Positions 4,456 to 64,000 of a DNA stretch of 64,000 nt are shown one piece after another. The position numbers and the translations under genes were made by a program. Location of the stretch: positions 682,001 to 746,000 of the forward strand of contig OZ237766.1 of NCBI GenBank assembly GCA_965178125.1, read 5' to 3'. How positions within the stretch are numbered: the stretch's first letter is position 1; each line of letters starts with the position of its first letter. The DNA is from Bilabrum cf. latius. Taxonomy: Eukaryota. Below the pieces are notes generated by a model. That model saw nothing but the letters and a program-made list of their open reading frames with translations. It made no database searches and was not told where the DNA came from.

Positions 4456-6225
4456 ATGCCCCAAAATCATGTGGCCGTAGTGGTGCTAGGCGATTTGGGT
4501 CGATCGCCTCGCATGCAGTACCACTGCCTGTCGCTCGCCCGCGCTGGTGCCAACGTTTCGTTCATCGGGTACGACGAGGAGAAATGCACGCAGGAACTAG
4601 AAAGCAGCCCACGAATCACCAAGCACGGCCTATCAACGCCGTTTAATGGCTGCAGTCGCAAGCTATTCCTGCTCTGGGCGCCATTCAAGGTCCTCTTTCA
4701 GATTTTGCAGCTGCTATGGGTGTTGCTCTTCGCCATCAAGGCCCCCTCGGCTATTTTGGTGTAGAATCCGCCGTCAATACCGACCATGTTTGTAGCCTTT
4801 ATTGCCAGCAGGCTCCGCGGCGCTCGTTTCGTCATCGACTGGCACAACTTCGGCTACACTATCCTGCAGCAGACGGCCGGCGGAGGGCGAGCCAGCCACC
4901 CGCTGGTGCAGGCCGCCCGCGTGTACGAGCGTGTCCTGGGGCAGACCGCGGATGGCGGCCTCTGCGTGACGCGGGCCATGCAGGGCTGGCTGCGTGACGA
5001 GTGGGGCGTGTCCGCGCATGTGCTCCACGACAAGCCCCCGGCCTTCTTCCGGCCCCTTGGGGTGGACGAGGCCCACGAGCTGTTCCTTCGGCTGCAGAGG
5101 GAGGGAACGTTCGGTGCGAAAAGCTTCGAGGCGCTAGTGGAGCAGGGGGGGCCTGGGACAGGCGATAGCAAGGACCAGGGGGTGGAAAAGGGGCGACTCG
5201 ATCGAATGGAGGAGGAGGAGGACGAGGAAGACGATGGGGAGGTGACCATGTTCACGACATCATCTTCATCTTCATCTTCTTCATCGCAGGTGGAGGCCCC
5301 CCATTGGCGGCAGGACCGGCCGGCCCTCATGGTGAGCGGCACCAGCTGGACCCCGGACGAGGACTTTGGGCTGCTGCTTGAGGCCCTCGTGCTGTACGAC
5401 AGGGCGGCGGTGGAGTCGAGGGGCGCAGGGGGGGAGCCAGGGAACAGCGATGCAGGGGGTGGGGAACAGGGGCAATAGGAGGAGGATGCACAGAGAGACG
5501 GTTAGAAGCAGAGCAGGAGACGCAGGCGGGGCAGCAAGGACCTTAGCAAGGACCTTAGCAAGGGCAATGCAAAGAACAAGGCCAGTGGCAAGGGCAGACG
5601 GCTCCCCCGGCTGGTAGTGGTTGTTACCGGCAAGGGACCGCAGAAGGCCATGTACGAGCAGAAGATCCGGAATCAGAAGTGGACGCACGTGCAGGTCCGC
5701 ACGGCCTGGCTGGCCTCTGCAGACTACCCCCGGCTGCTTGGCTCCGCAGATCTCGGGGTCAGCCTGCACACCAGCAGCAGCGGGCTTGACCTGCCCATGA
5801 AGGTGGTGGACATGTTCGGGGCCGGGCTGCCGGTACTGGCGGCCCGGTTTGCGTGCGTGGAGGAGCTGGTGCGGGAGGGCGAGAACGGGGGTTTGTTCGA
5901 GGACGCCGATGGGCTGGCGGGGCATCTCGTGCGCCTGCTGGACGGGTGGGGCGGAGGGGGTGGTGTGACGAGTGATGGGGTGACGAGTGGGGGTCCGCTG
6001 GACCGACTCCGTGCTGCGGTGCTGCGGGCCAGGGAACAAGATGGCTGGGAGGAGAACTGGGTGAGCAACGCGAGGCCGGTGCTGCTGCCGGGGGGGATGA
6101 GGGGGGGAGGGGAGCACGACGACGAGTCCATCGTGGATGGGCCGGGTGAAGGGGAGGAGGCAGGGAGTGGAGCAGGGGAGACACCCGGCCGTGCACAGGG
6201 AAGAAGAAAGAAAAAGGATGAGTGA
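4456..6225 (+). CDS. ALG1: Chitobiosyldiphosphodolichol beta-mannosyltransferase ALG1
   Basis: Motifs VVVLGDLGRSPRMQYH, ILV*NPPSIPT, IDWHNFGY, SGTSWTPDEDF, VTGKGP and HTSSSGLDLPMKVVDMFG. One continuous frame across TAGs at 4762, 5476 and 5503; ends TGA. Confidence 0.95.
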
Positions 6226-11080: not shown

Positions 11081-12514
11081 TCACCTCAGCTCGGCCCCCA
11101 GCTCCTCGCTGGTTCTCCTCCTCACTTCCTCCTGCAGCCTGTCCACCTCCTCATTGGTCAAGCTCCTCTCCATGGACCGGTAGGTCACCCTATAGCAGTG
11201 TGAGAGCCTGCCCGTCTTTGGGTGCGTGAAGGAATCGATCAGATCCACACGCTCCGCCAGATCGCCCGCCACCTCGCGCACCAGCTCGAAGAAACTGTGC
11301 GCGTGGAACTCGGTCGTGGCGGCCCGCAGGTCGTCATCGTCTCCGTCTGGCGCACTCGCCGCGACTCCCTATCCCGCATCGGCTGCATCCACTTCTTTAT
11401 CGCCGCCGCTGCTGCGGCCGCTGCTGCCCGCCACGATCGCCTGACCAGGCAGCCAGAACGTGATGTCCTTGAAACAGGGCGGGTACTTGGAAAACGGCTG
11501 GAACCGGACAGCCAGGTCCCCCTCTTTGCCCCTGAACTGCGACAGGAACCGCTCGTCCTGGCTCCAGAACAAGCGGATGTCGGGAATCTCGAACAGCCGC
11601 ATGGCAAGGCGGTCCAGCCCGAGCCCGAAGGCCCACCCGGGCGTGTTCCCCAGCCCGCACTGCTGCATGATACCCCCGTGCACCATGCCGCATCCCAGCA
11701 CCTCCAGCCACTCGTCCTCGTGCCACACCTCCAGCTCCAGCGAAGGTTCCGTGAAGGGAAAGTACGCGTCTACCCACCTCATCCGAACGTCTTGCCCGAA
11801 CAGCTGCCTCGCCATGCCCTCCAGCCCCGCCCGGAGGTCGCTGACCACCGCCTCTCGCACCTCCTAATTGTTCCCTGGATCTACCCCCGCGGCCCTAAGC
11901 TCTTGTTCCCCGAACACCCTGACACCTTCCATCTGGTGGAAGACGGGGTAGTGCGTCTGGTCCACGGTGTCGCGGCGGTAGACGTCACCAGCCACCAGGA
12001 AGCCTTGTTCCCCCGCCCGCAGCAGCTGTGTCTGGTGGGCCGAGGTGTGGCACCGCAGCAGCCGCTCGTTATCCACGTAGAACGTGTCCGTGGGCGAGCG
12101 GCTGACGTGCGTCGAGGGAATCAGTAGGTCGTCGAAGTTCTGCTGCACCGTCACGATCGGGTTCAAATCCTAATAGAGCTTCAGGGGACGGCCTACCTCT
12201 AGCTACTTGCCGCTGGCGTCTACCATTGGTATCGTTGCTTGCGGCTGCTGCCAGTACTCCGAGGCGATGCGAGCAATAGAACGAAGCGGATGGTCCTGCA
12301 CCTCCAGCAATCGCCTGCCAACCCGGTCTATGATACCGTCAGGGACATTATTGCTATCATGCTTTACTTTGAGCTATCGCTTCACTTCGGTAATGTCGTA
12401 TCCCTGCTGCACGCCGACTGATGCGGCCGTGGCGCATCTGCGGCTCAATAGCGCTGATTGTGGCGTCGCCACATTCCATGCCCTGCGTCCTTGACGCAAG
12501 CACCGCTGTAGCAT
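11081..12514 (-). CDS. FARS2: Mitochondrial-type (monomeric) phenylalanyl-tRNA synthetase
   Basis: Arg-rich transit peptide MLQRCLRQGRRAW, then NFDDLLIP, LLRCHTSAHQ, GDVYRRD, HYPVFHQMEG, YFPFTEPSLELEV, GWAFGLGLDRLAM and a C-terminal FDX-ACB (SHCYRVTYRSMERSLTNEEV). In-frame TAGs at 12374, 12203, 12170, 11864 and 11369; ends TGA. Confidence 0.95.
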
Positions 12515-30770: not shown

Positions 30771-30819
30771 CAACACCACGTTGGCAGCCGTAACCGTATC
30801 GCAGCGAGGGCCCATTGTT

Positions 30820-31068: not shown

Positions 31069-31090
31069 TCGACCTGCAGAGATTCTATGA

Positions 31091-47091: not shown

Positions 47092-48678
47092 TCAGGAAGC
47101 CATGGCAGCTGCGCCCCCACTGCTGCCCTTGGCACCACTCCCTTCCTCCTCCACCTCCTCCCCTACACCCGCCCCACTTGCACCTCCATCCACCGGCAGC
47201 CCGTTCCCGAGCCCGTCATCGGACCACACACGCACGGTGGGATCCAGGTCCAGTCCACCAGAGGCCAGGGCGTCGTACTTCGTGCTGGCATCCACCGCCA
47301 GCACGCTGTCTCTGTGCCCCGACAGCACCGCCGCGACCGCCCTGGACTGCAGGTCATAGGCGTACACGAGGTTGTTCTCGCTGCCAGTGATCACCCACTG
47401 GCGCCTGGGCTGGGTCACGCTGAATGCGCAGAACCCGCAGAAACGACTGGCCTTGTGCTTGTCGTATGTCTTCACGGGCTTGCCCCTCTGCAGCTCCCAC
47501 AGCCTGACCCGGGAGTCGAGCGTGCCCAGCAGCATGAACCTCCCGTTGGGGCTGAACCGCACGCAGCCCACGCACGGGTTGCTGTCGCTCAGCAGAGTCC
47601 TCACGTGCGTCCCCCGGGCCGTGTCCCAGACCCTGGCCATCCCGTCAAAGGACCCAGAGGCCAGGTGGGACCCGTCCCTGTTGAAGTCCACGGAGGTGAT
47701 GGGGTCTCCGTGGGCTGCCAGGCGGTACACCTCCCGCGCCGCCCTCACGTCCCACAGGCGCAGAGACTCGTCGTACCCGCCCGATGCGACCAGGTTGCCG
47801 CGAGGAGACCACGCAGTGCAGAAGGCAAAGTTTTTGTGCCCGCTTAGGCAGCGCGCCTCCTTGCCCTGCGGAGATGGTGGGAACAGGGGCGATCGTCGAC
47901 AGAGCAGAGTATGGAGCACCGAGAGAGGCAGCAGCTCAAGATCGGTTTGCGGCCGATTCACTGATTGCGAAGTTGAACATGATACCGACGATACACGAAG
48001 CTTCGACGAATTCGGCTAGTCATCCGCCAAAGTTGCTTCCAGGCTCACCGTTGTCACATCCCACAATCGGACCGTGCAGTCATCCGACGCCGTAGCCAGC
48101 AGATCGCCGGTGGGTGCCCACGCGCAATCGTTTAGACCATGCCGATGCCCCTTGAGCGTCGTAAGGGCGACGCCGGTGCTCGCATTCCACAGTCTAGCCG
48201 TCTTGTCAGCAGCTGCGTGAGCTCGGAGTGCAACAGAGAACGACGCGTTGGATGACGGATGCGCCATGCCTTGCTTGACTGGCAGCATAAAGCAACTGAT
48301 ATAAAATGCCGCTTCCGATCCAGATTGTACTTATTGGCGCGCTTGGTACACCCCGCGCGACTGGTTTCACTCGGAACAGCAAGGAGAACTGCAAGCCCAC
48401 TCACATACACTAGCAAGGATCACGTCATTGGGCTTGTACTTCACGCTAGACACAGCCTTTGTATGGCCACGTAACTCGAACCGCTACCGAAAGCGCGGAC
48501 GCCTTGTGGTTGGGCCAGGTGAGTCTTTGGTCGGGGCACTGTTGCCGTCACTTTTTGAGTGATTGCTAGCCGCCACGCCTGTTGGTGTGCTGGACGGCAC
48601 ACCCCTGGCCTGCGAAGATGCTTCGGTTGTTGTACTACTCTATTGCGAGGGTGCTTGCAATCCGGCGGCCGAGGACAT
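47092..48678 (-). CDS. WDR5: WDR5/Swd3-like WD40 protein (COMPASS subunit), spliced
   Basis: Motifs PRFR*RFELRGHTKAVSSVK, ADKTARLW, GHRHGLNDCAW, AHGDPITSVDFNRDG, VRFSPNGRFML and FSVT...WVITGSENNLVY. ATG at 48678, at least two introns; ends TGA. Confidence 0.85.
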
Positions 48679-48809
48679 GTACCCCGGTCCGAAAGTGGGC
48701 AAAAATCCACAGCAGATCATCGAGGGAAGACTCCACGATCCAGCTCCGATCGTTTGAGGCATCTAGCCGTTCCGTCACTTCGATTCCAAACAAAAACGAT
48801 TCAAATAGC

Positions 48810-49580
48810 ATGGCAGCTAGCTCTGGAGCCGCGCATTCTGCCGCCGGTGGTGGTGCAGAGCCAAAAGATGTTACGTAGGATGAAAGCAAGCAGCTCAGGA
48901 GGGTATTCGACTACTTGTGCGACTATGCTGCCAAGAGCAAGCTGGAACGCGAACGACAGCCAAAGTTAGAGCGAAAGAGTAAAATTTTGGCATACAAAAA
49001 GAATCCTGATGCAGTAAAAATTGTTGATGATACGGGCCGAGAGCTCACTGCTGCCTAGATTGATGCAGAGCTGCGACGAATAGACGAGGAGTGCGAGGCG
49101 ATCACGTCGAGCATTCGGGAGATCGAAGACAAGGCAGACAAGAAAATCCACCCACGGGATCTTATGGAAGCGATCGCAAAGCTAGGAAAGCGCTCATCGA
49201 AGAAGGAAATCGAAGACATGATCTGGGAGGTGGACGAGAACCTGGACGGTTGCGTGGACTGGGACGAGTTCCAGCTCATGTTCGAGCGCAACGTGAAGGA
49301 CACGACCGGCCTGGAGCCATACCACCTATTTGCAGTCGTGCAGTTCATGATGTACGACAAGGACGGGGGCGGGGAGGTGAGCGTGGACGAGACCATGCAC
49401 ATGCTGTACGCCCGGTACGGCAGGGAGCGGCTGTAGGAGGAGATGAAGGCGCTGTTCGGGGACGAGCTGAATGCCACGGGGGACGCCACTCTGACCTTCA
49501 CGGATTACCTGAAGGCAGTGGAGGCCAGACTGCCCAAGAGGAAAGGCAAGCCGGGGGCGGGGTCTGTTGCGGGCAAGTGA
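48810..49580 (+). CDS. Calmodulin-like EF-hand protein
   Basis: Motifs VT*DESKQLRRVFDYL, EIEDMIWEVDENLDGCVDWDEF and MYDKDGGGEVSVDETM. TAGs at 48876, 49056 and 49434; ends TGA. Confidence 0.9.
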
Positions 49581-49738
49581 CGGCCAGTGGGGAAGCAGTG
49601 CGGGCGAGGCCGCCGGGGAGGCGCGCTTTCTTCCTGTTCCAGATATTCTTCTGCGTATAATTTACCCTAACACAACAACCAAACAAAGCGTTCGCATCAT
49701 CGAGCTAATGCGCATCATCTCCCCCATCCCCCTCCCCC

Positions 49739-52700
49739 TCACTGCCCTTGCCCCCGCCCTTGCACGCGCACCCCAATTGCCCGGGCCCGCTGCAGCACCG
49801 CCTCATGAGCCGCCCACAGGGATTCGACCCCGGGATCTCGAGGGACACCAACATTCGATGCACCCTACCACAGCCTATTCGCGGGTCCAAATCCCTGTGC
49901 TTTCGGTGCTGCAGTGTACTGCACCCCTGGAGCCACATCCGGAACAAACGCGGGCTCATGGTTTCGGTAGGCTGGTCGCTGGCCGGCTGCAAGGTACCCC
50001 GCACCACCATGCGGTGCACCCAACCCAGCTTGGCCCCCAAGACCTTGCCCTGCGCTCCCAAAGTCCATGGGCACCCGCCCCCACGCACCGGGGAGCTAAC
50101 CTCCGGCCCCTCCACGGCCCCATTCTCCTGCCCGACCCCATTCCCCTGCCCGACCCCAAGACGGGGTCGGTTGCCCAGGAACGCCCTCACCATCTGTGGG
50201 ACGCAATCCAACGTGGACCACGTGTGTACCGCCAAGCGCACCGTCGAACCCAGACGGCGCATCGGCAACCGCTGCCTCCTTCGCATGGACAGACGGCGCA
50301 TCGGCAGCCGCTGCCTCCTTCGCATGGACAGCCTCGATGCCGCTGGGACGCCGCGAGTGAGACATATACCCAGCGGCCGGGCCTCGGCCTGGGGCTGGGG
50401 CACTATCAGGCGAGGCATAGCCGGTGCTTGCATGATTGCCAGCTCCCGGCCGTGCTCCAGGCCCACCCCCCATCCCCAGGCCCATGCCAGTCACCCCCAG
50501 CCCCAGATAGGGCTGGTGCGACGGGCTCCACTCGGCCCGCTGGCCGAATCCAGGCTGTGCTCGAGCCGCTGCCGCTCTGGCCATGGTCAAACTGGCATCT
50601 GCCACCAGCCTCTGCAACCACTGTCCCTCTGCGTCTCCCTGCCTGTCCTACTCCCCGCCCTTCCCCTCGTCCTTCTCCCCGCCCTTCCCCTCGTCCTGGG
50701 TCTGTGACTGGGTCTGTGACTGGGACTGTGACTGGGACTGTTCCTGGCCACCACTCACAGGTGCACCTTGTGCATCCGATGGTGATGCTTCTTTATCATT
50801 AGGCCCAATCCCCCGTGCATGGTCCGGGGCTAAAGCCCCCCCCAGCGTCTCGAATACAGTGGGCTGCCCCGGTGGAAGCGCATGAGCAGGGGCCTGTGGA
50901 GCCAGCATGCCGGCCCCCTGCACCGCCACCCCCGGGGCACTCCCCCTAGCCATCGCCTCCCTCGCCCACTGCACCGACAGCTCCCGACGGCGAGCGGCGT
51001 CGCCCCCCGGGTCAGCCACCCCCTCCGGCTGTTCCCCGAGAGCAGCGGCAGCGGCCTGCTGCCACCCCTGCGCCATCCTGAAGGTCGCGCCCTCTGCAGT
51101 CGCAGGGTTGCCCGCCCCCGGCACGCCCAGCGAGGCACCCGCCGCGGCCAGCGCCCCCCTCACCTCCGCCTCGCGAGCAGCCCCCGCGCCCCATGCGTCA
51201 GAGGCAAGTCCCAAGGAGGCGCCCAGAAGGCGGTCTGCCTGCCGCCCCGATTCCTCCGCCGCGGCATCGTGGGCCCCCCCCTGCATCCCCAGCTGTGAGG
51301 GGGAGGGCCCGTCCAGCAGCGCGTCAGCAGACCCAGACCCAGACCCAGACCCAGACCCAGACCCAGACCCAGACCCAGACCCGGACCCGGACCCGGACAC
51401 AGGCTGGCTTCCCTGGTCCAGTCCCTCGCCCTCGCCCTCGCCGTGTTCGCCCGCCTGGATCCTCTCTTGTTCCCCGGGCCCACTCGACCCGACGAGTGGC
51501 TTGAACACGGTGGGATGAGCAGCCGGGGCGGGATACGTCGAGGGCCCCACCCCAGCTGCGAGCAAGGCAGCGGCGAGAGGGGGGCCTGCCTACGCGCCCG
51601 CCCCCTTCTGCTGACCTGACAGCGGTGGGACGGACACGGCAGGTGCACCCGGCTGCTCGGGCGCTGGCGGCGGCCTGGGCTGCCTCACGGCCGGCAGCGC
51701 CCGAGCCCACTCCCTGACCTCTGCTGCCTTGTCCTGCACCCCTGCACGGGCCCCCTCTGCAGCCAGCAGCCCAGCTGCCACCTGCCTGCGGTAGCCCTTG
51801 TTCTCCAGCAAGGGGTAGGCCCTCGGCAGCAGCCGCGCCGCTTTGGCCACGTCCTCCGCGCTATCCGACTGGGCCAGACCCAGGACCTCCACCACACCGG
51901 GGCTTTCTCCCAGCGGATCAGCGCCGCTCCCACCACCACCACCATCCCCATCCCCATCCCCATCCCCGCCTGCCGCCGCCCCGCCCCCACCGAGCCGCCC
52001 CGTCCCCCGCAGCCTCTCCAACGCCACTTTCCCCCTCCTGCGCCAACCCTCCGTGGCCCGAGCAGCCGCCGCCAGCTCGTCCTCGAGCTCCCCACCCGCC
52101 TCCTCCTTGGCATCCAGTGCGGCCTGCTCCTGCGCAGATGGCACGCACAGCCCCGGGGGCTCCCCGCTGCCGCTCCCATGCGCCGCCCATGCCTCCTGCA
52201 GCGTGGGCGGGTCGTCTCCCTCCTGCACCCCCGGGGGGATGCTCGCGCCGCCCTTGCCATCGAGACCACCCGCTCCACCGCGGCCATGTTCCTCCTCCTC
52301 TTCCTCCCCCTCCTCCTCTTCCTCCTCCTCCACCGTGGTGTCGACTGCCACGGCCAGAGCAGGCACCCCCGAGGGCAGCAGTCGCACCCACAGGGGCTGC
52401 CGCTGGCCCCTCGCCCTGGCCAGTGCCATGGATGCCCCCTCCTCGGGGGTCCCCGCGCTGGAGGGGTCCTTCCAGGGGTCCTTCAGGGGCAGGCCGCGCC
52501 GACGGGCAGCCTTGCGCTGGGTCCACAGAGAGGCCAGGGCGGGGGCGGGCAGCATGGCAACCGGCCACCCCCCCGGGGCAGCGCCGGCGAGACAGGCCAT
52601 GGCCCGGGGAGGAGGGGGCCTGCGCGCGGGAGGGCTGTCCCCTTTCTCTTCCTCTTCCTCTTGCGCTTGCGCTTGCACCTCGGATGCCGCTTTAGCTTCG

Positions 52701-54974
52701 GCTTCCGTTGATCCCTAGGCTGTCTCTTCCGTCTACTGCTGCGGTCCCCCGTCACCCGCTTGTTCTCCGTCCTCGGCCGGGTCACGCTCACCCTCCAGTG
52801 TGCATGCCTCCCGCACCAGGTCGGTGAGGGCAGTGGCCACGCTGCACCGACCCACCCCCTCCTCCACTCCCAGGGCACCACCCCACGCCTCGGGTCCATT
52901 GGGATATGGAGCATCCTCTCCATCCCCTTCGCCCTGTTGGTTATGCCCTTTGGCTGCACCACCACCACCACCACCTCTCCCGCTCCCGCTGCCTCCAGCC
53001 CCTTTGCCCAGGTCAGCACCCCTAGCCTCTAGACCCTGGCTATTGTCGCGCCCCGCCCGGCCCCCACTGTCCACCTCCACGCCTTGCCGCAATGCTCCTT
53101 CCTCTCCTGTGAACGCGCCGGTGCCAAAGGCCCCAGCAACCTCCTCACCCCCTTGCCACCTAGCACCAGCACTACCGCCAACCCGCCGCTGCAGCCCGGC
53201 AGGCACCAAGTCGCTCCTCCGGACCCTGCCACGCGCCAGTGCCGCCCGCTGCCCCGCTCCCTACACCTGCGCCACCAGCCGCCCCGCCATCTGGGCCCTC
53301 TGCTGCTGCTCCCTCAGAGCTCGGATGGCCCGCGCCTCGGCCGCGGAGTGCTCCTGCCGGGCCAGCTGCAGCCGCCGCTGGAAGGACAGCATACCCGTGT
53401 CCAGCGCGTCACCGATGCGCCGAGCCGCCTCCCGGACACCCTCGCCAGCCATTCTTCTCCCCACCCCCGGCACCCCGCCCATCCCGCGCCCCTCCACCTC
53501 CCGCAGCACCTCCCGGGCCCCCGCAGGCACCTGCAGGCCCCGCATCAGCAGCCACTTCCTCCCCAGCCCGTGCCCCGGCCCGTCGTTTACGTCCTCATCA
53601 GCCACCGCCCCTGAATCCTCCTGCTCTTCGTCGTCCTCGTACTCATCCTCGAAATAGTCCTCGTACTCATCCTCATCCTCGTCCCAGTCGCCCGTGCCGC
53701 CTCCGTACGTGTACTTCTGTCCTGCGGCCGCCCCCGAGCGGGATATCCTCCCACCGATGCCCCCACCATCGCGGTCCACCCGTCTCCCGAGCCAGTCTCG
53801 GCTCGAGTGCGGGCCCGGGGGCAGAGGCGGGTGCACGCGCCTCGCCGACAGCCTGTGTCCGGCCCTTGCCCTGGCAGCCGCGACCGTCTGCTCGTGAGGA
53901 GGAGGCAGCGGGCGGGCCGCGCGCGCCTCTGCCGACAGTTCCCCTTGTTCTCCGGGTGCACTGCCTTGCAGCGCGCCCACCGCCCTCTCCAGCACGGGGT
54001 CCATCCCGCGGCCCCTCCTGCTCCTCTCCGCCGCCCCGGCAGCCGCCCGCCCCACCGCGGCCAGGGCGCCATCCACAGAGGCAGCCACGCGAACACCGAT
54101 CGACCGCCGGGGGGAGGGGGGTCCGAACCCGGCTTCCATCCACCCGCCCCGGCCCCGGCCCCCGCCCCCTTCCAGCCCCAGCCCCAGCTCTGAGTCCTCG
54201 CCCTGCTGGAACAGCCCTTCACCCACGGCACTGGGCAGCGAGCCCGCCGCCTCCATGGCCCCCGACAGATTCCCCTCCTCATCTTCTTCGTCTCCATGCC
54301 CCGTGCCTTGTTCCCCCAGGCTGGCCCCGATGGCCGAGGCCCGCCGCCGGGCGGCCTGCAGCAGGGCAGCCACGGAGGCGCTGGCCACGCTGTGGGAGAG
54401 AGAGGCCAGGCCGGGGGCGTGCACGTCTGCGGGGCCAAGGTCTGTGTCTTTTACACCGGAAGGCGGGCGCAAGCGCGCCTGAAGCCGCCCGCGCGCCCCT
54501 GTGGGCTTGTTCGGTGGTACAGCAGGCCCCGAGGTCGATGGCTGAGCAGGCTGGCTATCTCGGCTGCGATTCAATAGACTGACATACGTGGGTAGGTCTC
54601 AGATGCGAAAAGGAAACGAATGATTTGACCGGTATCGGGTTGTTCATACGCTGTCTGCGTTTGTCTCACAGCGAAGGCTCGCTCAAGTCATCGCTCGGTC
54701 GCAGTCCAGACGCACGGACTGCCCCTGCACGGCTTCGTGGGGGGCGGCTAGATGTGTTTTGCGTTAATTTACTTGCAATGGATTCCATGCCAGGGTCACC
54801 CGAGACAGGCTGTCCAAAATCTCGAGAAGAAGGCGGATCGATCGGCGCTACCGGGGACGGATGCAGCCACCATGGTTCTTTATCCTCTGTCTTTTCCGTC
54901 TATGATTGTCTAGATTCTCGACTTTGGGCAGCCCCTTCCCTAAAACGCTTGATCAGCTCCTTAGCGGTCGCCAT
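49739..54974 (-). CDS. Large low-complexity protein with PROSER3-like N-terminal motif; intron 54579-54669
   Basis: Starts MATAKELIKRFREGAAQSRESRQS*...PWWL, followed by a phase-compatible GTGAGA...TCAG intron. Six ORF-track fragments lie in one frame joined by TAGs; ends TGA at 49739-49741. The family resemblance is from recall only. Confidence 0.6.
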
Positions 54975-55100
54975 TTCCGTGTGAATAGCTTTGAATTGCC
55001 GCAACGGCTGGAAGTTCGCTACGATGTCACGAACGTTCTGTGTGGCTGCGTAAACATCAATACCATTGTCCGGTGCGGTAGCAAGAGACGTCTGATATAC

Positions 55101-56393
55101 ATGAAGCTTGTTCTGACAAAAACTTTGTGGGGGTGCGATGAGGTAGCACATCCACAAAAATGGGCCGGCTTGCTCGAGCGTGTGGTTGCACAAGGCTTCA
55201 ACGCGATCGAAATCGCGGCTGCTGGTCTTCCCGGTGACGGAGCTCTGGACAAGAAATGGGCGGAAGCCGTGAAAGCGAGCGGTCTCAAGCAAGTTGTGCA
55301 GCTGCACACTTGCGGCTACGTGGCTCGCCCAGGTGCGGCGGCCATGAGCCACGGCATCTTCGCGCAGGGCATCGTTGGGTCGGAGGACCCCAAGGACCAC
55401 CTCCGCTCGTTTGAGGAACTGACCAAGCGAGCCATGACGATGGGAGCGGATCGAATTAACTCTCACTCGGGTCGGGACTCGTGGGATACGCCTACGGCGG
55501 TCGCATTCCTGCGAGATGCGATCGCAATCTCGACACGACTGGGCGTGGCCGGCATCACGACCCACGAGACGCACCGCCAGCGCATCATGTGGAATCCCTT
55601 TTAGGCCATGGCTGTCATGCGGCAGATCCCTGAGCTGCGAGTCACCGCCGACCTGTCCCACTGGTGCTGCGTGATGGAGCGCGTGCCCGACACCGAATCG
55701 GACAGAGCGTGGGGCACGGGTGAGAGCAAGGGCGAGAGCAAAGATTCGGAGCCAAAAGGATGGGCCGCCATGCTGGAGCTGCTCGCAGACCGGGTGGACC
55801 TGATCCACGCGCGAGTGGGCGGGGCCGAGACCCCCCAGGTGGGGCACCCCGCCTCCCCCGAGGTGAGCTACGAGGTGCAGGAGCACGAGGGGTGGTGGGC
55901 CCGCATCCTGCGAGGGATGAAGGCGAGGGGGCTGGAGGAGGCATGGGTGGAGCCGGAGTTCGGAGCACCCGGGTATCAGCGCGTCACCCCCTTCACATGC
56001 ACGCCGGAGGAGGACCTCTGGGAGGTGAACGGATACATGGCGGGCCGGGTGGCTGTGCTGTACAGCAAGCTGCACCTCAATGAAGATACCGAAGGCAGCG
56101 ATGCAGGCAGCTTGAAGGCGGGAAGTGCGAAACAAGCCACTGGCAAGGGGGTAGGCGGCATCCCGGCGCCTCTGTTGAAGCTGTACAAGGATGGAGAGGC
56201 AAGGGGGGAGGTGGCTCGCAGGAGGCTAGCGACAGGGGGTGCAGAGGTAGGGAAGCCCCAGGATAACTTGAATTGGAAGGGCGGCGTGGTTTTGCTCAGC
56301 GTTGGGCTGGCGATAGGTTTCTTCGCTGGAATCGCGCTTAAGCCGACATTGGAGCGAATGATTCGAAGCAGTGGCCGCAAATCTACCAGTTAA
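55101..56393 (+). CDS. Xylose-isomerase-like TIM-barrel sugar phosphate isomerase/epimerase with C-terminal TM anchor
   Basis: Motifs KTLWG, INSHSGRD, HETHRQRIMWNPF*, LRVTADLSHWCCVMER, IHARVG and PEFGAPGY. TAG at 55602; ends TAA. Confidence 0.85.
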
Positions 56394-56756
56394 TGACAGC
56401 TGGGCCTTACGGTGTCCATATTTCGATTGCAGTCTTTTGGCCAGCGTGTACTATGTTCCGCAAGTGATGGTGGAGAGCGCGGCGCCACTGTGTCGTGCAG
56501 GCGTTGAGAGCACGGAATCATACTTGTGCATCCGCTTCGTGCTGTCTGCCTGCGTAAGTACCCGGTCAAATGATCTCGACTTGCAAGCTTCATGCATCCT
56601 CTCCCAAGCTTGAGATAATTTGCTAGACTCCATCGCCTGAATTGCCCGTTTCGGTTTCGAGAAAAGAATACAGTTCCACTGCACCGATTCACCTGTTGGC
56701 GCAGCATGCAAAAAGAAAAAGTTGTGTTCGATTCTGCCGTAAGTGGTTCCAATCCT

Positions 56757-59496
56757 ATGCACGAAAAAAAGCCAACGCAGCAGTCTGCAGGGGGCTAGAA
56801 AGCCATGTGCTGCGGGCTGGGCCTAGGAGGTGCGATTGGTCTCAGCGTGGTGGCAGGTCTTATTTTTGGAGGGGCAATCGTTGGAATAGCTATGAACTCT
56901 CTTATGGATGATGGCGATGAAGGTGAAGCAGCGAGGCCCTCACTCTCAAGCACTTCTGCGTCCACGGAGTTTGCTGCCAGCACTGCTGACAGCCTTGCTG
57001 CAAACGCATGCCCGAGCGAAGGACAGGCAGCGGCTCTAACAGGCCCAACTGAGTATTTTGCAACCACATACATCGACATTGCGGGGCCTGCGCTTTCCTG
57101 CGATGAAGCGGGGGCGATCGGTGACGCGACGGCGTCTACGCTCGGCGTAGCTGCTAATGCTACCTTCGTTGGCGTCCTGTCGATTGGAACCAGGCGAATG
57201 TCAACGGTTACGACCAGCGCCAGCAAGCGCCCTGGTCATCTGCGGCAGTTGTAGTCCGTGTCGCGCATCGAGCAGACGATCCTCGCCCGCGACATTTCGC
57301 AGCTCCAGTCGATCGAAGCAAGCATGGTGCAGGCCTACAGCGACGGCTCCCTCGAAGCTAGCATCCTGGCAGCCGCGCCCGCCGAGTCCACGGGCGTGCT
57401 TCTGCCCCCAATTGAGTCCCTCGTGCGGGTCGGAAGGCTTGCCAACCCATCGACATCGCCGACTGCATCAGCCTCGCCGTCGCCGTCCACCACCGGCACG
57501 CCAGGCCCTTCATCGTCTGCTTCCCCGTCCACCACGGCCACACCCTCGACCACTGCAAGCGCTTCCCCCTCCACAACAGCTTCGGCAGACCCGACAACGA
57601 CGGCCACAGCCACGGCGTCAACCACTGCAAGCGCTTCCCCCTCCACAACAACGTCGGTCTCACCAACGCCGTCTGCAACCAGCACCGCCACCGCCAGCGC
57701 CAGCCCCTCGCCTGTCGCCACTGTCGTTGACCTGAAGCTGGTCGACATCGTGGATGACACGGCCATCTCCACGCTGAACGCGGAAGTGGTGCTGCGCAAC
57801 GAGCGGACGGGACAGGTCTCTGCAGCGGGTTGGATCCTCTCTGGGAGCGATACCCTGCGTGTGACTATGCCGGGCACCGACCTGCACGCCATCGAGGCCA
57901 GGGGAGAGGGCTTCGTGCAGGTGCTGCCCGCCTACTTTGACAGGGCGCAGGCCGGGCTCTACTCGGATGCAGTGTCGTGGTTCCCAGTCTACGTGGCCAA
58001 GCTGAGCGATTAGGACGAGGAGACCACCCGGGTGTTTGCCACGAATGGGCGCAGGCCCGGCGACCCTGAGCTGGCTGCACTCATCGGCAACACCTCGAAT
58101 TCGCTGGTGCACGCATCAGCAGGGACGAAGCGCGGCAACGGCGACAGCCCCGAGTGGTGCAAGGCGCACCATGATACATCCGATTGCTCCTTTGGGAGCA
58201 CGTCCATGGTCTCGTTGAGGGATACAAGCGGCTTGAACGGGTGGGGATCCGAGATGGTCACCATCACGGACGGGAATTCTTCCTGCAGTTTGGGGCAGGT
58301 GGACGGCACGTTGGAGGCGATGACGTGCAGGGTGCGAATCATGGTGAGCATTTCGTCCAGTTTGCCTTGGTTGTGCTTCAGCTCTGATTGCTCACCTCAT
58401 ACCGCCTGCTTGCGCTCTCCCCCCCAAGATGTCTCACCTGTGCCACCCAATAATTGGCCTGGCATTCTGCTCACCGCAGCTGGTTGAGTACAGTCCTGGC
58501 GGCGTGTATAACGTGGACGATCCCACCGATGATTCCGAAGAGTATTACATACATGATCCCTCGGAAGTGGACGAGACCTTCGTCCCGCGTGTAGTGCTAG
58601 GGCCCAACGGATACAACGCCACGATGCGGCCGTCCCTTTTCCACTACATCTCTAGCCCCGCCGTGGCAGTCGTGGGTGCCAACAGCAGCGCCGGCGTAAT
58701 CCGCATCTCGGCACGGGAGGCTGTCACCCAAGAGACGGTCGATCACGTAGCTAACACGGGAGCGTGGTGCAGCGAGTGGTTCGTGGGCACGTACGACCTT
58801 GCAAGCAAGCAAATGTCCGAGTACCGCGACAATGGCGTCTCCTGGGTGCTTGACGAGTTCTTCATGACCAATTGGTGGGAGGGGTACGTCTGGGATGCGG
58901 AGGAAGGGACGGTCACGGCTCGTAATGCCAGCTTTGTGCCTTCCAACGTGTCGACCTACCCGTTCCTGTGCTCCTTGCCCCCATACGTCCTGGGTGACAC
59001 CTTTGCGAACAACCTGTACGACGACGACTAGCTCTACGAGACGTGGAAGGGATCCTACCTGGCCCAGTACATCGCCATGTTCCTCGAGCCTGACCTCTTC
59101 CGCACAGCAGACGATGACACCAGCATGGTGGACGATCCGGACTACCAGGTGCACACGTACAACCTGCGCCGGGTGGACCGCTCCCGCAAGGTGGGATACC
59201 GCCGGCTGCTGGAGGCCGAGGGGCGGGCAGAGGTGGACGCCGACTTGAGGCTGAGGGTGGAGCGGCTGCTGGAGGCCGAGGGGCGGGCAGAGGTGGGCGC
59301 CGATCTGAGGCTAAGGGTGGAGCGGCTGCTGGCCAACCAGGACCCAGAGAGCGGGGAGCCGCTTGCAGAGGTGCGGCACGTGCCTGACTACATCCCCGAG
59401 GAGCTGGCAGAGGACCTGAAGCGCAAGAGCTTGTTCCAGGGGAGGGACCACAGCAGGCCATGGCTGCTGTCGGATGGGCGTCCGCTGCTCTACTGA
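56757..59496 (+). CDS. Membrane-anchored surface protein with Ser/Thr/Pro-rich stalk; intron about 58344-58480
   Basis: N-terminal TM segment and a mucin-like region at 57440-57720. TAGs at 56796, 57252, 58011 and 59029; a GTGAGC...CCGCAG intron restores the frame. A 60-bp internal duplication lies at 59203-59332; ends TGA. Confidence 0.65.
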
Positions 59497-59693
59497 CTGT
59501 ACCCGTACTGAGCAAAGTAGACCAGGCCAGGCCAGGCCAGAAACAGAAGCAGAAGCAGTGGCACGGGGTGTCTTGGACGGCCTGGAATGCCACAGCTGTC
59601 GGCCAAATATACGCTTAAGAGCGTCTGTCGCAATGATGATGGTTGATTACATATCCGGATCGTTGCAATTAACCTAGGCTCAGTTCTATGTCC

Positions 59694-61115
59694 TCATGTA
59701 CTACCACCACTGGCTGCCTCAGCTGCCTCGCTGTCCCCTCCCTTACCCTCCGCTTGCGCGCACCTCCGCACATGCCGGATCACCTCCGCGTGCACCTCTC
59801 TTGGACCAGCTGAGGCCACCACTCCCAGCGAGGTGGGCAGCCGCCTCCCGTGCGAGAAATCAAGCTCCCTCCCCTCCCCGTCCGTCACGCAGCCGCCGGC
59901 GGCCTGCAGCACGGCAGCCCCGGGCGCGTGGTCCCACACCTTCTCCCTGTATCCCGCCTGAGGGAAGCGCAGGTACAGCTGGGCCTGCCCCCGGGCCAGC
60001 AGCCCGTACTTGGCCATCGAGTCGATCCGGACGGGGGCCTGCTCCTCAGCCGGTGGGAGGCCAAGTGAGGTTGCGACCGCCTCGCTGAGCCCGTGTGACG
60101 AGTGCCCCGACTCGAAGGACTCGACCAGTCGGAATGCGGAGAGAGGGCACGGGCTCGGGCTCGGGCTGGAGCTGGAGGGGAGGGGGGCGCAGGACTGGCC
60201 GCCGGGGAGCATCGACACCAGGTCATCCGAGTGCGTGCTGTCACCCTTCAAGTTGATTGTGCCCGCCGCAGCCAAGCCGTCCTCCTATTCCTTTTCCTCT
60301 TCGTCACCCCTGCCGGCCGTGGAGGCGCGCTTCCTCTCGGAGGCAGGCGCCACTGGCACTGGCACTGGCACCGGGAGCAGGGAGCTGCCCACCTGGCTGG
60401 CCTCGAGAGTTGAGGCGATAGGGAACTGTGCGCACTGAGGGGTGCCACTAGCAGTGGCCAAGCTGCCTACAAACAGCGTCCCGTTGCCCTCGCCACCGCC
60501 GGCTGTGTGCTCGCCGTGGTCGAACCCGAGGTTCGGACACGCTATCACCCCTGCGATTGCCCGAGCCCCGTCCACAAACCCCAGGCCAATAGAGTACTGA
60601 TGATCTTTGCCGCGAAGGAATCCTTTCGTTCCATCAATAGGATCTAAGCAGAAATATCTTCCCGCGTACTCTTCCGAAGCGGTGGGATCAAATGTGCCAG
60701 CATCGAGAGCCTCACACACAGACACTTTGTCGACGGCCTTCGCATCAAGATATGTGCACCCCGCAGCCCCTTGCTTGATTGCATCGATCACAGCAGAGCA
60801 AACCGATCCATTCTCCCGAACCGCAGAAGAATCCTCCTCGCCAATGACAGGCAGAGCCGCATGCCCGCCTTCGAGCAACTCGGGATCCCGCTTGAGCAAC
60901 ATAACTATAAGAGCCTGCACAGCAAGGTCTCCAATCGTAACGGGTGACAGATCATCTTTCGACAGACTAAACCCTGCACCAGCAGAGCCTGCGGTCGCAG
61001 GTTGAAGCCTACGAGTGATGGTTGCAGCTCGCAGAACGGCTCTAGAAGCCGCTCGAATGTAGGCCATGTGTAAGTGATCTGCACTTGAATCTGATTCGTC
61101 GGCAGCTGCAGCCAT
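59694..61115 (-). CDS. 3'(2'),5'-bisphosphate nucleotidase (HAL2/MET22/SAL1 family)
   Basis: Motifs KDDLSPVTIGD, GEEDS, LDPIDGTKGFLRG, GVIACPNL, ESFESGHSSH, RIDSMAKY and YREKVWDHAPG. TAG at 60285; ends TGA. The start could be slightly upstream. Confidence 0.92.
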
Positions 61116-61392
61116 GTGGGCTCGCAGTATGCCCCGATCGGGTAGATCTAGAGTTGCACACATCTCACTCTTCTTCTTCTTGGAAGTCGCACGCACGGTA
61201 GGTGCAGCCGAGTGCGGTGTACCCTACAAGCAACTCATATAGACTGTGCTCTTACACTCACAGACGGAAGCATGTTTGCAGAAAGTGCGCCAGGGTATCG
61301 CAGGCAGGCCTGCGAATCAAGCATTGATGGCGACGTGCTGTATTCGACAGCCCCTCAGGCTGTTTTGCGTTGTTTTGTCCACCAGCGGCGGC

Positions 61393-64000
61393 TTACCCGG
61401 TCCCCTGCTCCGCCAGTCTCGCTCGGATGTGCTGCACCGTGTCAGCGAACTCCTCGCTCGTCACACCCGATACCTTGGCCGCGTCCTTCGCTGGGATGAC
61501 GGTCCCCCCACTCCCTGCGACCCCTCCCTCCCCCTGGGCCTGCTCCCCACCTCGTGACCCCGCCCCCATCCGGTGCACCCCTGCAACCCCCCCGCCTCGT
61601 GACCCCGCCCCCATCCGGTGCACCCCTGCAACCCCCCCGCCGCGTGACCCCGCCCCCATCCGGTGCACCCCTGCAACCCCCCTGACATCGTCTGATGACA
61701 CGCTCATATCCCCCCGAGCCCAGTCGCTCCCCAGGCTCCTGTTTCCCTCCCCCGCCATGGGGTCACCCCCGCCCCCCCTGCTCCCCCCCGCCAGCCCCAT
61801 GAGCCCCCTCATCTCAAGCAGGTCGCTCACGCTATACAGGCTCTGGTTTCCCTCCCCCGCCATGGGGTCATTCGGGTTTGTGCCGGGCACGTGGTGCATG
61901 GCGCTGCTGTCGCCGAGCCCCGCCCGCAGTCGCTCCATGTCCGCCACGCTAGCAGGTCGGTGTGCATGTGCAGGCTGCGAGTCGGACTCCCCTGACCCTT
62001 GCTCGAGAACAGCGCTGCTGATCCGGCCCCGGCCACTGCCGCCGTGCGGATCCTCCGAGACGGATGACGACGAGGAGGAGGTGATGTTGCCAGGCGCCAT
62101 ATCACTGCCGTGCAGTGCACCAATTCCCAACCCCACAGCTCCACGGGCCCCTGGTGTCCCCGGGACGCTCACGCTGCCTGCAGATCTAGCCCCCAGCCCC
62201 CCGTGCACGGGGCCCGCCCCCGCTTGTGCCCCGACCTCAGCCCCTGCCCCCCGCTGCTGCCCCTGCCCGTACATGCTGCCCAGCGACTGCGCCCCGATGG
62301 ACAGCGCGCCCAGCCCCATGAAACCCCCTGCTGGACTACTCCCCCCCGGACTCTGGCTATGCTCCTGCACGTGCCCCTAGCCTTGATGCAGGCGCAGGGT
62401 GTGCTGGGGTGCCCCCGGGGGTGTATCGCTGGGCATGGTCATCATCTGCTGCCTGTGCTCGTCCTTGATGTCCCGCTGATGCTGCATCATTTCAATGCTG
62501 TTCTGCATCTGCTGTAGTGCGAGCATGCGCTGCATGTGCAGTGCACGGTGGTGGTGCAGCTGCTGCTCCCTGTAGGCCTCCGCAGGGCCGGTCATCCCAT
62601 GCACGCCTGCATACCCCTAACCCCAGCCGGGGGACGATGCGGGGTGCCCCGGGGGGTACGAGGGGGCGCCAAAGGCCCCTTGGGCGGCCGCCGACAGACT
62701 CTTCAGCCCCTCATGCCTCGAGCTGTGCGAGCTGGCGGTGCTGCGGTTGGACGAGACATGCTGGCTTGCCGGGCCAGTGTTTGGCAGGACGCCGCCCATG
62801 CGATCCGGTCGGCGACCTGAATCATGGTACGACTGCCCGGGGCCCCGCCCGTGGAGTCCTGGAGCAGCAGGTGGCAGGCTGGGCGGCACCGGATGCAGAC
62901 TGAACTCGGAGCCCTGTGAGTGTGACGAGTGTGCCGCCGGAGCGACGGGTGACTCGGGCCTGGAGCCGACTGCCACCCCATATCCCATGCCATGGGCCCC
63001 CTTGCCCTTGCCCTTGCCCTTGCCCTTGCCCTTGCCCTTGCCTTTGCCTTTGCCCGCTCTCCCCCTGCTTGACCCAGGCCCTGCCCTCGGGGCCCTCCCC
63101 TGCAGCGTGGCATCCGCGGCCCAGTCAGACACAACAGTGGGTCCGCCCAGGCCCAAATACTCCCGAAGGTGCGGGGGGACTGCAGGGCCCTGCTGGCCTG
63201 CCTCTGCTCCGCTTGGGCTGGAGCCATCCCCCCCCCTGCCTGCACCCTCGGCAGGGGGGGGCAGCACGGGGATGGCAGAGCACACGAACATCTGCGCCTG
63301 CCCGTCGCTTGCCCGCAGCAGGGACATGGACACCAGCGAGGACACGGTCCCTCGCCTGAACTTGCACAGCTTGCGGAAGCAGTGCACCATCGGAGTGCCG
63401 CACCCGTCCTGCCCCACGGTGCCAGCCAGCGGCCTGGACTGCGCCGCCACCATCATGGCAGCCCTGGCGTCTTCGCACGACTCGCAACTGTGGCGGGAGG
63501 CGTCCTCGGCCGATCCCTTTCCTCTTCCATTGCCTTTCCCCTTCCCCTTTCCTGTACCTCTACTTCGATCACTGCCCGCACTGATGCTTCCCTGTCCTGC
63601 CTCCGCTCCGTCACCACCGCCATCACCACCGCCATCACCACCGCCATCGCCACCGCCACCCCCATTTACCCCCCTGCCTTCCTGCTTGCCCTGGTGAATG
63701 AGGGAGGACACCACGTCGAACATGCTGTCCAGCTCGCTCTGGGGGGTCAGCGAGAACACGCTAGAGGCGCGGAGCTGGTCTGCCGTGTACCCCGTGAGCG
63801 CCCTGAACAGGGCGTTCGTGCGGCGGAAGGAGCCGTCCGGGGCTGCCACCGCCATGGCCACGGGCGCCAGTTCGAACACGCAGGGCAGCGGCAGGGGGGC
63901 GCCGGGCAGCGGCAGCAGAGCGCCGGGGGCAGGCACGGGGGTGGGTCGCACGGGGACTGGGGCGGTGTAAGAAGGGACTCCCCCTTGGGAAGGCAAGCCG
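61393..64000 (-). CDS. PAS-domain protein, probable bHLH-PAS/bZIP-PAS transcription factor; 5' end is outside the window
   Basis: Contains VFELAPVAMAVAAPDGSFRRTNALFRALTGYTADQLRASSVFSLT...FDVVSSLI and a later VSMSLLR...MFVCS. TAGs at 62617 and 62377; ends TAA. Confidence 0.75.
61553..61682 (-). repeat. 45-bp coding repeat x3 (GVAGVHRMGAGSRGG)
   Basis: Units start at about 61553, 61598 and 61643. Confidence 0.85.

Follow-up and report, generated by a model that had tools for sequence, protein, structure and literature searches.

Nuclear reassignments of stop codons are rare. Rarer still are those in which UAG and UAA have been uncoupled, for which the part of a 2024 survey available to us names few cases (PMC11687900). 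In that part of the survey, reading of UAG alone as glutamine is given for the fornicate Iotanema spirale, the ciliate Protocruzia tuzeti, and two phyllopharyngean ciliate lineages. UAG alone is assigned to other residues in the rhizarian exLh and some ciliates (leucine) and in Scotinosphaera (serine). Reading of both UAA and UAG as glutamine (NCBI table 6) is given for many ciliates, Hexamita, Streblomastix, ulvophycean green algae, and Amoeboaphelidium (PMC11687900).

The stretch of DNA analyzed here in its full length of 64 kb (the window) is eukaryotic nuclear DNA with a GC content of 52 to 72%, about 64% overall. The high GC proposed from the letters alone holds over positions 48001–64000 (0.57–0.72). 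We consider it very probable that this is GC-rich nuclear DNA of a stramenopile, likely from within or near Bigyra/Opalozoa, in which UAG encodes glutamine and both UAA and UGA are stops (NCBI table 15). The evidence supports a known type of code, UAG as glutamine only, in a new lineage.

In-frame TAG and the genes of the window

When frame ends are set by TAA and TGA, and TAG is left open, 21 long frames (16,715 codons) contain 77 in-frame TAG codons, an abundance far beyond chance. Counted together with CAG (565) and CAA (125), TAG supplies about 10% of the glutamine codons in these frames. TAG is nearly as frequent in frame as off frame across the window (74 versus 95.5), and the longest frame delimited by TAA or TGA reaches 1,782 codons. 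UAG is an ordinary sense codon in this organism.

Contigs from three studies bear on the same sites. They comprise DNA contigs (X1) and transcript-like contigs (X5–X7, whose run type is a program's guess, with X5 flagged as "probably DNA"), and they agree letter for letter with the window at TAG sites. The transcript-like contigs join exons across GT..AG gaps, and the X1 contigs retain these introns. Nine in-frame TAG codons are covered by transcript-like contigs and are unchanged, with no other letter at any of them. We also identified a sister species, represented by two metagenome contigs (L001 and L002), whose EF-hand protein is 95% identical to that of the window.

The single-exon gene for this EF-hand protein (48810..49580, plus strand; Pfam EF-hand_7, E=2.9e-14) has in-frame TAG at 48876, 49056, and 49434 and a TGA stop; X5–X7 contigs over 48797–49642 show no other letters. 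On the minus strand, a low-complexity frame of 1,619 codons (49742..54598) contains seven in-frame TAGs and neither TAA nor TGA. At its 5' end is an intron (54564–54669), and the corresponding joint, 54563/54670, was found in X5 only. The gene at 55101..56393 (plus strand) encodes a TIM-barrel protein that resembles xylose isomerase and has a hydrophobic stretch at its C-terminus; the TAA stop is directly followed by TGA. The protein's Pfam match to AP_endonuc_2 (E=3.7e-6) is under the family cut-off, and contigs over 55078–56485 show no other letters. The next gene (56706..59496, plus strand) has two exons (56706–58342 and 58479–59496) separated by an intron at 58343–58478, a further 5' intron at 56554–56704, in-frame TAG at 56796, 57252, 58011, and 59029, and a TGA stop. 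Joints and contig pieces for this gene occur in X5–X7, again with no other letters, and X5 has a poly(A) loose end behind position 59672. No Pfam family was found for the encoded protein.

A 3'(2'),5'-bisphosphate nucleotidase of the HAL2/SAL1 type is encoded at 59694..61115 on the minus strand (TGA stop; Pfam Inositol_P, E=1.1e-30), and its solved matches include SAL1 (8f9y, E=7e-51) and yeast HAL2 (1k9y, E=7e-40). The TAG of this gene (60285–60287) lies within a lineage-specific insert. An X5 contig covers 59679–61146 with no other letters and no gaps. The gene also holds, at 60093–60104, one copy of a 12-base motif that is scattered through genes and is frame-locked, with one reading phase per orientation. 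A palindromic 10-mer considered as the source of the repeated peptide GVTS had no matches, and the 12-mer was read from the DNA instead; our search of the literature for the 12-mer returned primer coincidences only.

The last frame (61393..63999, minus strand; TAA stop) continues beyond the window's end. It has in-frame TAG at 62617–62619 and 62377–62379 and contigs over 63064–64000. Near its N-terminal part is a weakly PAS-like segment (approximately 63,680–63,880, minus strand), for which Pfam PAS (PF00989) scores 18.2 bits against a cut-off of 22.6 (E=0.0026). In an ESM-Atlas feature search the segment scores 0.97 to PAS clusters that are all bacterial, the nearest of them being PAS fragments. 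A likeness of this segment to stramenopile bHLH-PAS/bZIP-PAS factors, suggested by an earlier sequence-only reading, is therefore not established.

Three genes from elsewhere in the window are informative as well. A partial WDR5 gene (47095..48669, minus strand; introns 47865–48047 and 48213–48404; Pfam Beta-prop_WDR5, E=7e-77) has its joints in X5–X7, its TAG at 48018 is intronic, and the orthologous exon in L001 is 86.6% identical. The single-exon gene for ALG1 beta-1,4-mannosyltransferase (4456..6225, plus strand), identified by Pfam glycosyltransferase domains, carries one TAG (4762–4764) at an invariant glutamine position and two more within an insert. The single-exon gene for a mitochondrial-type phenylalanyl-tRNA synthetase (FARS2; 11081..12514, minus strand) has five in-frame TAGs and a TGA stop. 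It joins in one chain the class II core tRNA-synt_2d (PF01409, E=1.4e-51) and FDX-ACB (PF03147, E=3.2e-15). Among solved structures, the human mitochondrial enzyme matches best (3cmq_A, E=4e-103), in agreement with the mitochondrial PheRS named in the sequence-only reading, and an enzyme of this type implies a translating mitochondrion.

The sulfatase (E=1.4e-16) and GH95-like catalytic domain (E=1.9e-9) that had also been reported are present, both outside 48810..64000. Introns are likewise present, all GT..AG on the gene's strand, but with lengths of 106, 136, 151, 183, and 192 nt they are somewhat longer than the proposed 90–150 nt. Searches of the window for rRNA (Rfam) and tRNA (ARAGORN) found none, as did a search for tRNA genes in seven related loci (ARAGORN), and an eRF1 gene is absent from the window.

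UAG could be ambiguous, being read through in some contexts and terminating other genes. Frames delimited by TAA and TGA would hide genes that truly end at TAG, and about 22 genes were examined. We nevertheless regard such ambiguity as unlikely, given the near-equal counts of TAG in and off frame and the nine TAGs within transcript-like contigs. Orthologous frames have TGA or TAA as their terminators in both the window and L001, and the EF-hand genes stop at the identical residue (TGA in the window, TAA in L001). In addition, contigs end 15–176 nt past the TGA or TAA stops of four genes (EF-hand, TIM-barrel, HAL2, and 56706–59496).

The host lineage and the distribution of the code

Three single-gene trees, for which SH-aLRT is the sole measure of support, were used to place the host, with taxonomy checked. 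In the ALG1 tree, the window protein falls in a clade of 70 rows (SH-aLRT 97) that contains all named stramenopiles (Cafeteria, Blastocystis, and 10 oomycetes) and leaves out all named plants/streptophytes, fungi, and the rhizarian Amorphochlora. ALG1 also groups with Blastocystis and Cafeteria in a set of 27 rows (SH-aLRT 84). The FARS2 tree places the protein with Cafeteria in a group of 31 rows (SH-aLRT 91), a loose grouping with weak agreement, and in the EF-hand tree a clade of 32 rows is sister to Cantina (SH-aLRT 81). None of these Bigyra-type groupings (84, 91, and 81) is starred.

The EF-hand family has 319 matches. Among the best 120 the organism is readable for 10, and all 10 are stramenopiles: Hondaea, Cantina, Tetraparma, two Triparma, Chrysophaeum, a pelagophyte, Ectocarpus, Chrysoparadoxa, and Sphacelaria. 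The nearest labelled relative, at 67% identity, comes from a EukProt transcriptome (GenBank TSA prefix). The family had been described as of oomycete/ochrophyte type; the link to stramenopiles stands, and the oomycete part is not supported, there being no oomycete among the 10 readable matches. Overall, the marker proteins most likely branch within the stramenopiles, nearest to Bigyra/Opalozoa, in line with the stramenopile host that the sequence-only reading had proposed.

This signal could instead arise from sparse labels and long branches, with the true host lying outside the stramenopiles or in a lineage already known to read UAG as glutamine. Only about one quarter of the matches are named, the query branches are long (0.83–0.89), and most tree neighbors are environmental proteins without an organism name. 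FARS2 matches also include green algae at similar identity (48–51%). We judge a different host to be quite improbable, in view of the strongly supported ALG1 clade, with named stramenopiles in and other named groups out, and of the uniformly stramenopile EF-hand matches. Ciliates and metamonads do not occur among the named best matches of the three proteins, there is no sign of a ciliate or fornicate affinity, and the mitochondrial PheRS argues against a fornicate.

A stramenopile host in which UAG is read as sense has close relatives that can be compared. In the sister species, TAG is again about as frequent in frame as off frame (48 versus 49.5 in L001 and 12 versus 16.5 in L002), and the EF-hand orthologue has four in-frame TAGs of its own. 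The low-complexity frame at 49742..54598 aligns with L001 positions 8370–13262 over 1,439 residues, 690 of them identical, and the L001 frame contains 27 in-frame TAGs. In control stramenopile loci, by contrast, counts range from 0 to 7 in frame versus 10 to 52 off frame: 1 versus 10 in L004, 0 versus 30.5 in L013, 7 versus 52 in L020, 1 versus 38.5 in L043, 0 versus 38.5 in L051, and 0 versus 26.5 in L068. Nearer relatives offer few sites (4 versus 5.5 in L031, 4 versus 3 in L054, and 5 versus 3.5 in L045), and in L031 no TAG lies within a recognizable coding part. Gene linkage is conserved in L004, where homologues of CEBPZ, the EF-hand protein, FARS2, and ALG1 occur inside 7 kb.

The code is common to the sister species, and more distant relatives avoid in-frame TAG. 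That the sister shares the code and a linked distant relative does not is consistent with a change that arose separately and fairly recently within the stramenopiles. The origin would be separate because the published lineages with UAG as glutamine only are ciliates and a fornicate. The independent origin suggested by the sequence-only reading gains support from the stramenopile-like markers and from the contrast between L001/L002 and L004. Its further statement that stramenopiles have no well-established UAG-only code agrees with the literature: we found no nuclear code change for stramenopiles in open-access papers or preprints, although the runs date from 2025 and a description may exist. 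The accessible parts of the Incisomonas and Halocafeteria genome papers contain no mention of a variant code.

The meaning of UAG and the remaining stops

Several comparisons bear on the amino acid. At the TAG of ALG1, the homologues have glutamine in 120 of 120 cases. Between the window and the sister species, TAG interchanges with CAG or CAA at orthologous codons. In the EF-hand gene, the window's TAGs at residues 83 and 209 are CAG in L001, a TAG at residue 50 of L001 is CAG in the window, and the TAG at residue 23 is common to both; the TAG at 55602 in the TIM-barrel gene is CAA in the L001 orthologue. Residues opposite TAG in 21 pairs from six orthologous frames were Q (7), R (3), A (3), E (3), H (2), G (1), M (1), and S (1). 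A likelihood test on these pairs gave lnL values of −47.4 for Gln, −63.7 for His, −64.3 for Arg, and −64.6 for Glu, and favors glutamine as the probable residue, with the runner-up 16 log-likelihood units behind.

Another residue, chiefly glutamate, might be proposed from individual columns. Homologues have E in 109 of 120 cases at the TAG of EF-hand residue 209 and D in 103 of 120 at FARS2 residue 115, E is the commonest residue at FARS2 residue 217, and 3 of the 21 orthologous partners are glutamate. At EF-hand residue 209, however, one close homologue has Q and the sister species has CAG. Together with the invariant ALG1 column, the 7 of 21 partners that are glutamine, and the far lower likelihood for Glu, this makes a glutamate reading very unlikely.

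UAA and UGA behave differently from UAG. With TGA as the sole stop, real frames are extended by short flanks only, and the 21 long frames are free of internal TAA; if TAA followed the proportion of CAA to CAG, about 17 should be present. TGA occurs off frame 232 and 292 times in the 16,715 codons, yet frames of up to 1,782 codons are open. UGA is not a sense codon, and UAA is not a sense codon and terminates genes.

Could UAA have been reassigned together with UAG, as in table 6, and be too rare at high GC to be seen? TAA is indeed rare in the window (184 + 186 sites), and TGA ends 17 of 20 frames, which is not above the expectation from base composition. The deficit of TAA in the long frames speaks against this reading, as does the less GC-rich L001 (55% GC, 92 TAA on one strand), in which the two longest frames delimited by TAA or TGA (1,631 and 1,104 codons) contain 46 TAGs and each end in TGA. 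Since the EF-hand gene of L001 moreover has TAA exactly at the position of the window's TGA, we assign joint reassignment the same slight probability as a glutamate reading. That the in-frame TAGs might reflect pseudogenes, assembly errors, or U-to-C RNA editing, and so not be translated in this form, is exceedingly improbable, as we found no support for it, the X1 and X5–X7 contigs carry the same letters at TAG sites, the frames are long, and the sister keeps them open with TAGs of its own.

Glutamine for UAG, with UAA and UGA as stops, is the pattern that is supported. By analogy with published cases, in the part of the literature available to us (PMC5304391), the decoder of UAG would be a tRNA-Gln whose anticodon, CUA, differs by a single base from the CUG that reads CAG. 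Such a tRNA would be incapable of pairing with UAA. Recognition of UAG by eRF1 may have been lost or weakened, with that of UAA and UGA kept (PMC5304391).

Comparison with described codes

On balance, we lean toward the view that this is the first nuclear code change in stramenopiles, in a bigyran lineage that is GC-rich and comprises two species or more, with UAG captured by glutamine after the split from syntenic relatives that use the standard code, and with a phase-locked 12-base motif scattered through genes that is explained by no known process. If true, this would be a young, datable stop-codon capture for which both reassigned and standard-code relatives are in public data. Because the code occurs in the sister but not in syntenic relatives, one could put dates on the steps and compare them, from the new tRNA and the change in eRF1 to the entry of TAG into genes. 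The evidence that capture can affect UAG alone would grow by one more independent case, from a third supergroup lineage. There is also a practical consequence. Gene callers using the standard code would break about every gene, with the EF-hand gene cut at codon 23, so that public catalogues probably lack this organism's proteins or list them as fragments.

In table 6 codes, as described in the accessible part of the survey, glutamine captures the stop codon as it does here. UAA is also reassigned in those codes, whereas here it is a terminator without in-frame use. The codes of exLh, some ciliates (leucine), and Scotinosphaera uncouple UAG from UAA as in the window, but the amino acid differs, glutamine being favored here by 16 log units. 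Protocruzia tuzeti and the two phyllopharyngean lineages have, according to the same portion of the survey, a codon table identical to that of the window (table 15; PMC11687900). Those ciliates are alveolates, whereas the window has ordinary chromosomal gene order, about 64% GC, introns of 106–192 nt, and proteins that group with stramenopiles. The window resembles Iotanema spirale in that UAG alone has become glutamine and UAA is still a stop, as reported in the available part of its description (PMC5304391), and for both a tRNA-Gln(CUA) together with an eRF1 that recognizes UAG less well would be expected. Iotanema, an anaerobic metamonad, lacks a classical mitochondrion (PMC5304391), unlike the organism studied here, with its mitochondrial-type PheRS and its stramenopile grouping. 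The present case also offers genomic DNA, together with introns and a sister species.

Reading frames and their stop codons

The window shows a GC fraction of 0.52-0.72 across its 64 kb (2 kb steps), and searches for tRNA, rRNA, and other Rfam families found none within it. Once stops are limited to TAA and TGA, very long reading frames appear, the longest having 1,782 codons. The Pfam matches in these long frames represent an ordinary eukaryotic gene set: a sulfatase, an ALG1-type glycosyltransferase (4456..6225, +), a mitochondrial-type PheRS (FARS2; 11081..12514, -), a glutamate-receptor-like protein, a PX protein, a GH95-like protein, WDR5 (47095..48669, -), an EF-hand protein (48810..49580, +), a TIM-barrel protein (55101..56393, +), and a HAL2/SAL1 nucleotidase (59694..61115, -).

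Codons were counted in 21 long frames bounded by TAA and TGA (16,715 codons in total). TAG is unconstrained in these frames, which remain open without TAA or TGA for as many as 1,782 codons: it occurs in frame 77 times, and the two off-frame phases of the same stretches contain 85 and 98 TAG, 36 and 40 TAA, and 232 and 292 TGA. In a control comparison across loci, the window gave 74 in-frame TAG versus an off-frame mean of 95.5; six stramenopile metagenome contigs with a homologue of the EF-hand gene gave 1 versus 10, 0 versus 30.5, 7 versus 52, 1 versus 38.5, 0 versus 38.5, and 0 versus 26.5. Long frames can also include non-coding TAG: the one at 48018, in the WDR5 frame, is intronic.

UAA and UGA behave as stops. 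No in-frame TAA lies within the genuine long frames of the window, where about 17 would be expected from the CAA:CAG ratio if TAA encoded Gln. With TGA as the sole stop, genuine frames lengthen by short flanks only (among them 4 codons beyond 17870, 45 beyond the PAS-like frame at 61393..63999 (-), and 1 beyond the TIM-barrel gene). TAA is frequent in L001, a metagenome contig from a sister species (92 on one strand), and frames of 1,631 and 1,104 codons in that contig, bounded by TAA/TGA, contain 46 TAG and both end in TGA. In the EF-hand gene the stop falls at the identical residue in both sequences, as TGA for the window and as TAA for L001. Overall, 20 frame ends in the window comprise 17 TGA and 3 TAA.

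Window DNA is present in seven public sequencing runs (X1-X7), four of which (X1, X5, X6, and X7) were compared with positions 44001-64000. Contigs of X1 are colinear with the genomic DNA. Those of X5, X6, and X7, from two studies other than that of X1, skip gaps of 183, 192, 151, and 136 nt, and a 106 nt gap is joined in X5 only. Every joined gap starts with GT and ends with AG on the strand of the gene, and a poly(A) run terminates one X5 contig behind 59672. The X5-X7 contigs behave as spliced transcripts, the run type being a guess and X5 being flagged as probably DNA. Nine in-frame TAG (48876, 49056, 49434, 55602, 56796, 57252, 58011, 59029, and 60285-7) are covered by these contigs with no other letter at any of them, so that editing, pseudogenes, and misassembly are disfavoured as explanations. 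Exact matches to the window (44001-64000) turn up in contigs of runs that belong to three studies and bear three different organism labels; the source organism may be carried along in cultures or samples of other organisms.

The amino acid read at UAG

The ALG1 TAG at 4762 falls in an alignment column that is Q in 120/120 homologues, and Q is the most frequent residue opposite the TAG at EF-hand residues 23 and 83 (27/120 and 25/120). The column is E in 109/120 homologues at EF-hand residue 209 and D in 103/120 at FARS2 residue 115. Given these acidic columns, distant homologues by themselves do not separate Gln from Glu.

Scanning metagenome contigs with the EF-hand family alignment yielded two contigs from separate metagenomes, L001 (15.3 kb) and L002 (5.5 kb). 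They represent the sister species (GC 55%), with an EF-hand protein 95% identical to that of the window, and share with it WDR5, the EF-hand gene, the low-complexity gene, and the TIM-barrel gene in that order. The sister has in-frame TAG of its own: its EF-hand gene contains four, and the two frames of greatest length contain 27 and 19. EF-hand residues 83 and 209 are TAG in the window and CAG in L001, residue 50 is TAG in L001 and CAG in the window, and residue 23 is TAG in both. Across six aligned window/sister frame pairs, counting positions with local identity of at least 0.5, 21 residues face a TAG: Q 7, R 3, A 3, E 3, H 2, and G, M, and S 1 each. Scoring these partners by how each amino acid is substituted within the same alignments gave an lnL of -47.4 with TAG taken as Gln, compared with -63.7 (His), -64.3 (Arg), and -64.6 (Glu). 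Together, the orthologous codons and the likelihoods indicate that UAG is glutamine. UAG accounts for 77/767, about 10%, of Gln codons in the 21 long frames.

Recurrent motifs and tandem repeats

The 12-mer GTGTGACGAGTG, mostly with G before it, occurs in the window in 25 exact copies and in 42 at one mismatch or fewer; about 0.01 would be expected by chance. Exact copies are at 5963, 13555, 14098, 14493, 14514, 15591, 15609, 16633, 17032, 18897, 18917, 20013, 21504, 24186, 24513, 33029, 33140, 33947, 35258, 38385, 41670, 42830, 42927, 60093, and 62920. All 25 lie within long frames, on both strands; the sense copies translate as x-V-T-S-x (17/17) and the antisense copies as H-S-S-H (8/8), and flanking sequence is not conserved. 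The motif was searched for in L001 and is absent. The HAL2 copy, retained in an X5 contig, encodes an ancestral H-S-S-H also present in yeast HAL2, and those in ALG1 fall within a loop insert specific to the lineage. A second motif, approximately GGTGCATCGCACGGTGGTGC and read G-A-S-H-G-G, has about seven copies (13521, 14238, 14259, 19268, 20552, 20873, and 43421) in three of the low-complexity genes that bear GTGTGACGAGTG.

Three tandem arrays were identified. The first (26162-27606; 45-nt unit, 33.7 copies) lies inside a 1,530-codon frame (24043-28632, -) and yields a 15-residue acidic repeat. The second (29346-29816; 24-nt unit, 19.6 copies), read on the + strand, matches Pfam Gly-zipper_Omp (E=2e-13), and the third (30819-31069) has 6.3 copies of a 40-nt unit. 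Three frames with a common conserved block (7505-8665, -; 10166-10894, +; 43962-45452, -) look like a small paralogous family. The block reads R-D-A-R-L-x-F-Q-A-A-A-E-G-R-P-M-E-L-A-K-R in two of the three and adjoins a weak ankyrin match. Among these frames, TAG in one copy faces His in another.

Lineage, age of the change, and known codes

The sequence-only reading assigned the host to the stramenopiles partly from a PAS domain and an oomycete/ochrophyte-type EF-hand protein. The PAS segment is below the Pfam cut-off (E=0.0026), its nearest Atlas clusters are bacterial, and it carries no lineage information. The EF-hand argument holds in that the family appears to be stramenopile, but no oomycete occurs among matches with a readable organism. 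This family has just 319 matches among 5.8 billion proteins, and the organism is readable for 10 among the best 120 of these, all ten stramenopile (lineages checked). In its tree, the query pairs with L001 (96), then joins three other proteins (100) and a 24-row clade (98); the next, 32-row clade holding the query is sister to Cantina (81).

Best FARS2 matches are only 48-54% identical, and named ones are mixed (brown algae, Cafeteria, Tribonema, a diatom, Platysulcus, and green algae). In the FARS2 tree, the query and Cafeteria belong to one group of 31 rows (SH-aLRT 91), separate from the ochrophyte and green clades. For ALG1, the best named matches are Cafeteria and Blastocystis (47%), followed by oomycetes. 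The ALG1 tree, built without 12 redundant oomycete and plant rows, unites the query with every named stramenopile in a 70-row clade (SH-aLRT 97), outside of which are named streptophytes and plants, two fungi, and Amorphochlora; within it, the query groups in 27 rows with Blastocystis and Cafeteria (SH-aLRT 84). Together, these proteins indicate a stramenopile, probably within or close to Bigyra/Opalozoa and lacking close named relatives; the placement comes from trees of single genes in which all support values are SH-aLRT and the query branches are long. The PheRS matches solved structure 3cmq (E=4e-103), and its mitochondrial type fits a translating mitochondrion.

By sequence comparison, the code is common to the window species and its L001/L002 sister. 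In the distant relative L004, homologues of CEBPZ, EF-hand, FARS2, and ALG1 (from a 39 kb contig) lie within 7 kb (8017-14423); CEBPZ-like, ALG1, and FARS2 genes are likewise close together in window 1-12514, so this linkage is conserved. Matches to both ALG1 and FARS2 also occur on two further JGI contigs (68,508 and 38,028 nt). Because L004 avoids in-frame TAG (1 versus 10 off-frame, P=0.0005), the code change looks younger than the divergence of its lineage. Three other contigs, with best-segment EF-hand identities of 80% (L031), 73% (L054), and 67% (L045), each have few TAG, and both long-frame TAG of L031 are upstream of recognisable coding parts. Two distant EF-hand homologues from metagenome contigs have in-frame stops within the aligned gene: in L080 (GC 0.33), TAG aligns with D and E and TAA with gaps; in L065, TAG aligns with K and G. 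These may be introns, or the contigs may derive from other organisms with variant codes.

Decoding machinery for UAG (tRNA, eRF1) is absent from the 64 kb window. By analogy with cases treated in PMC5304391, a tRNA-Gln with anticodon CUA, which differs by a single base from the tRNA for CAG, would read UAG yet not UAA, and an eRF1 N-domain change would weaken UAG recognition. No report of a stramenopile nuclear code change was found in the full text of open-access papers and preprints, and one may be described elsewhere; the matching literature concerns mitochondria, viruses, or other groups. Sections of PMC11687900 list UAG=Gln only in Iotanema, Protocruzia, and two phyllopharyngean ciliate lineages, UAG=Leu in a rhizarian and some ciliates, and UAG=Ser in Scotinosphaera. 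The type of code described here is already known, and the lineage would be new.
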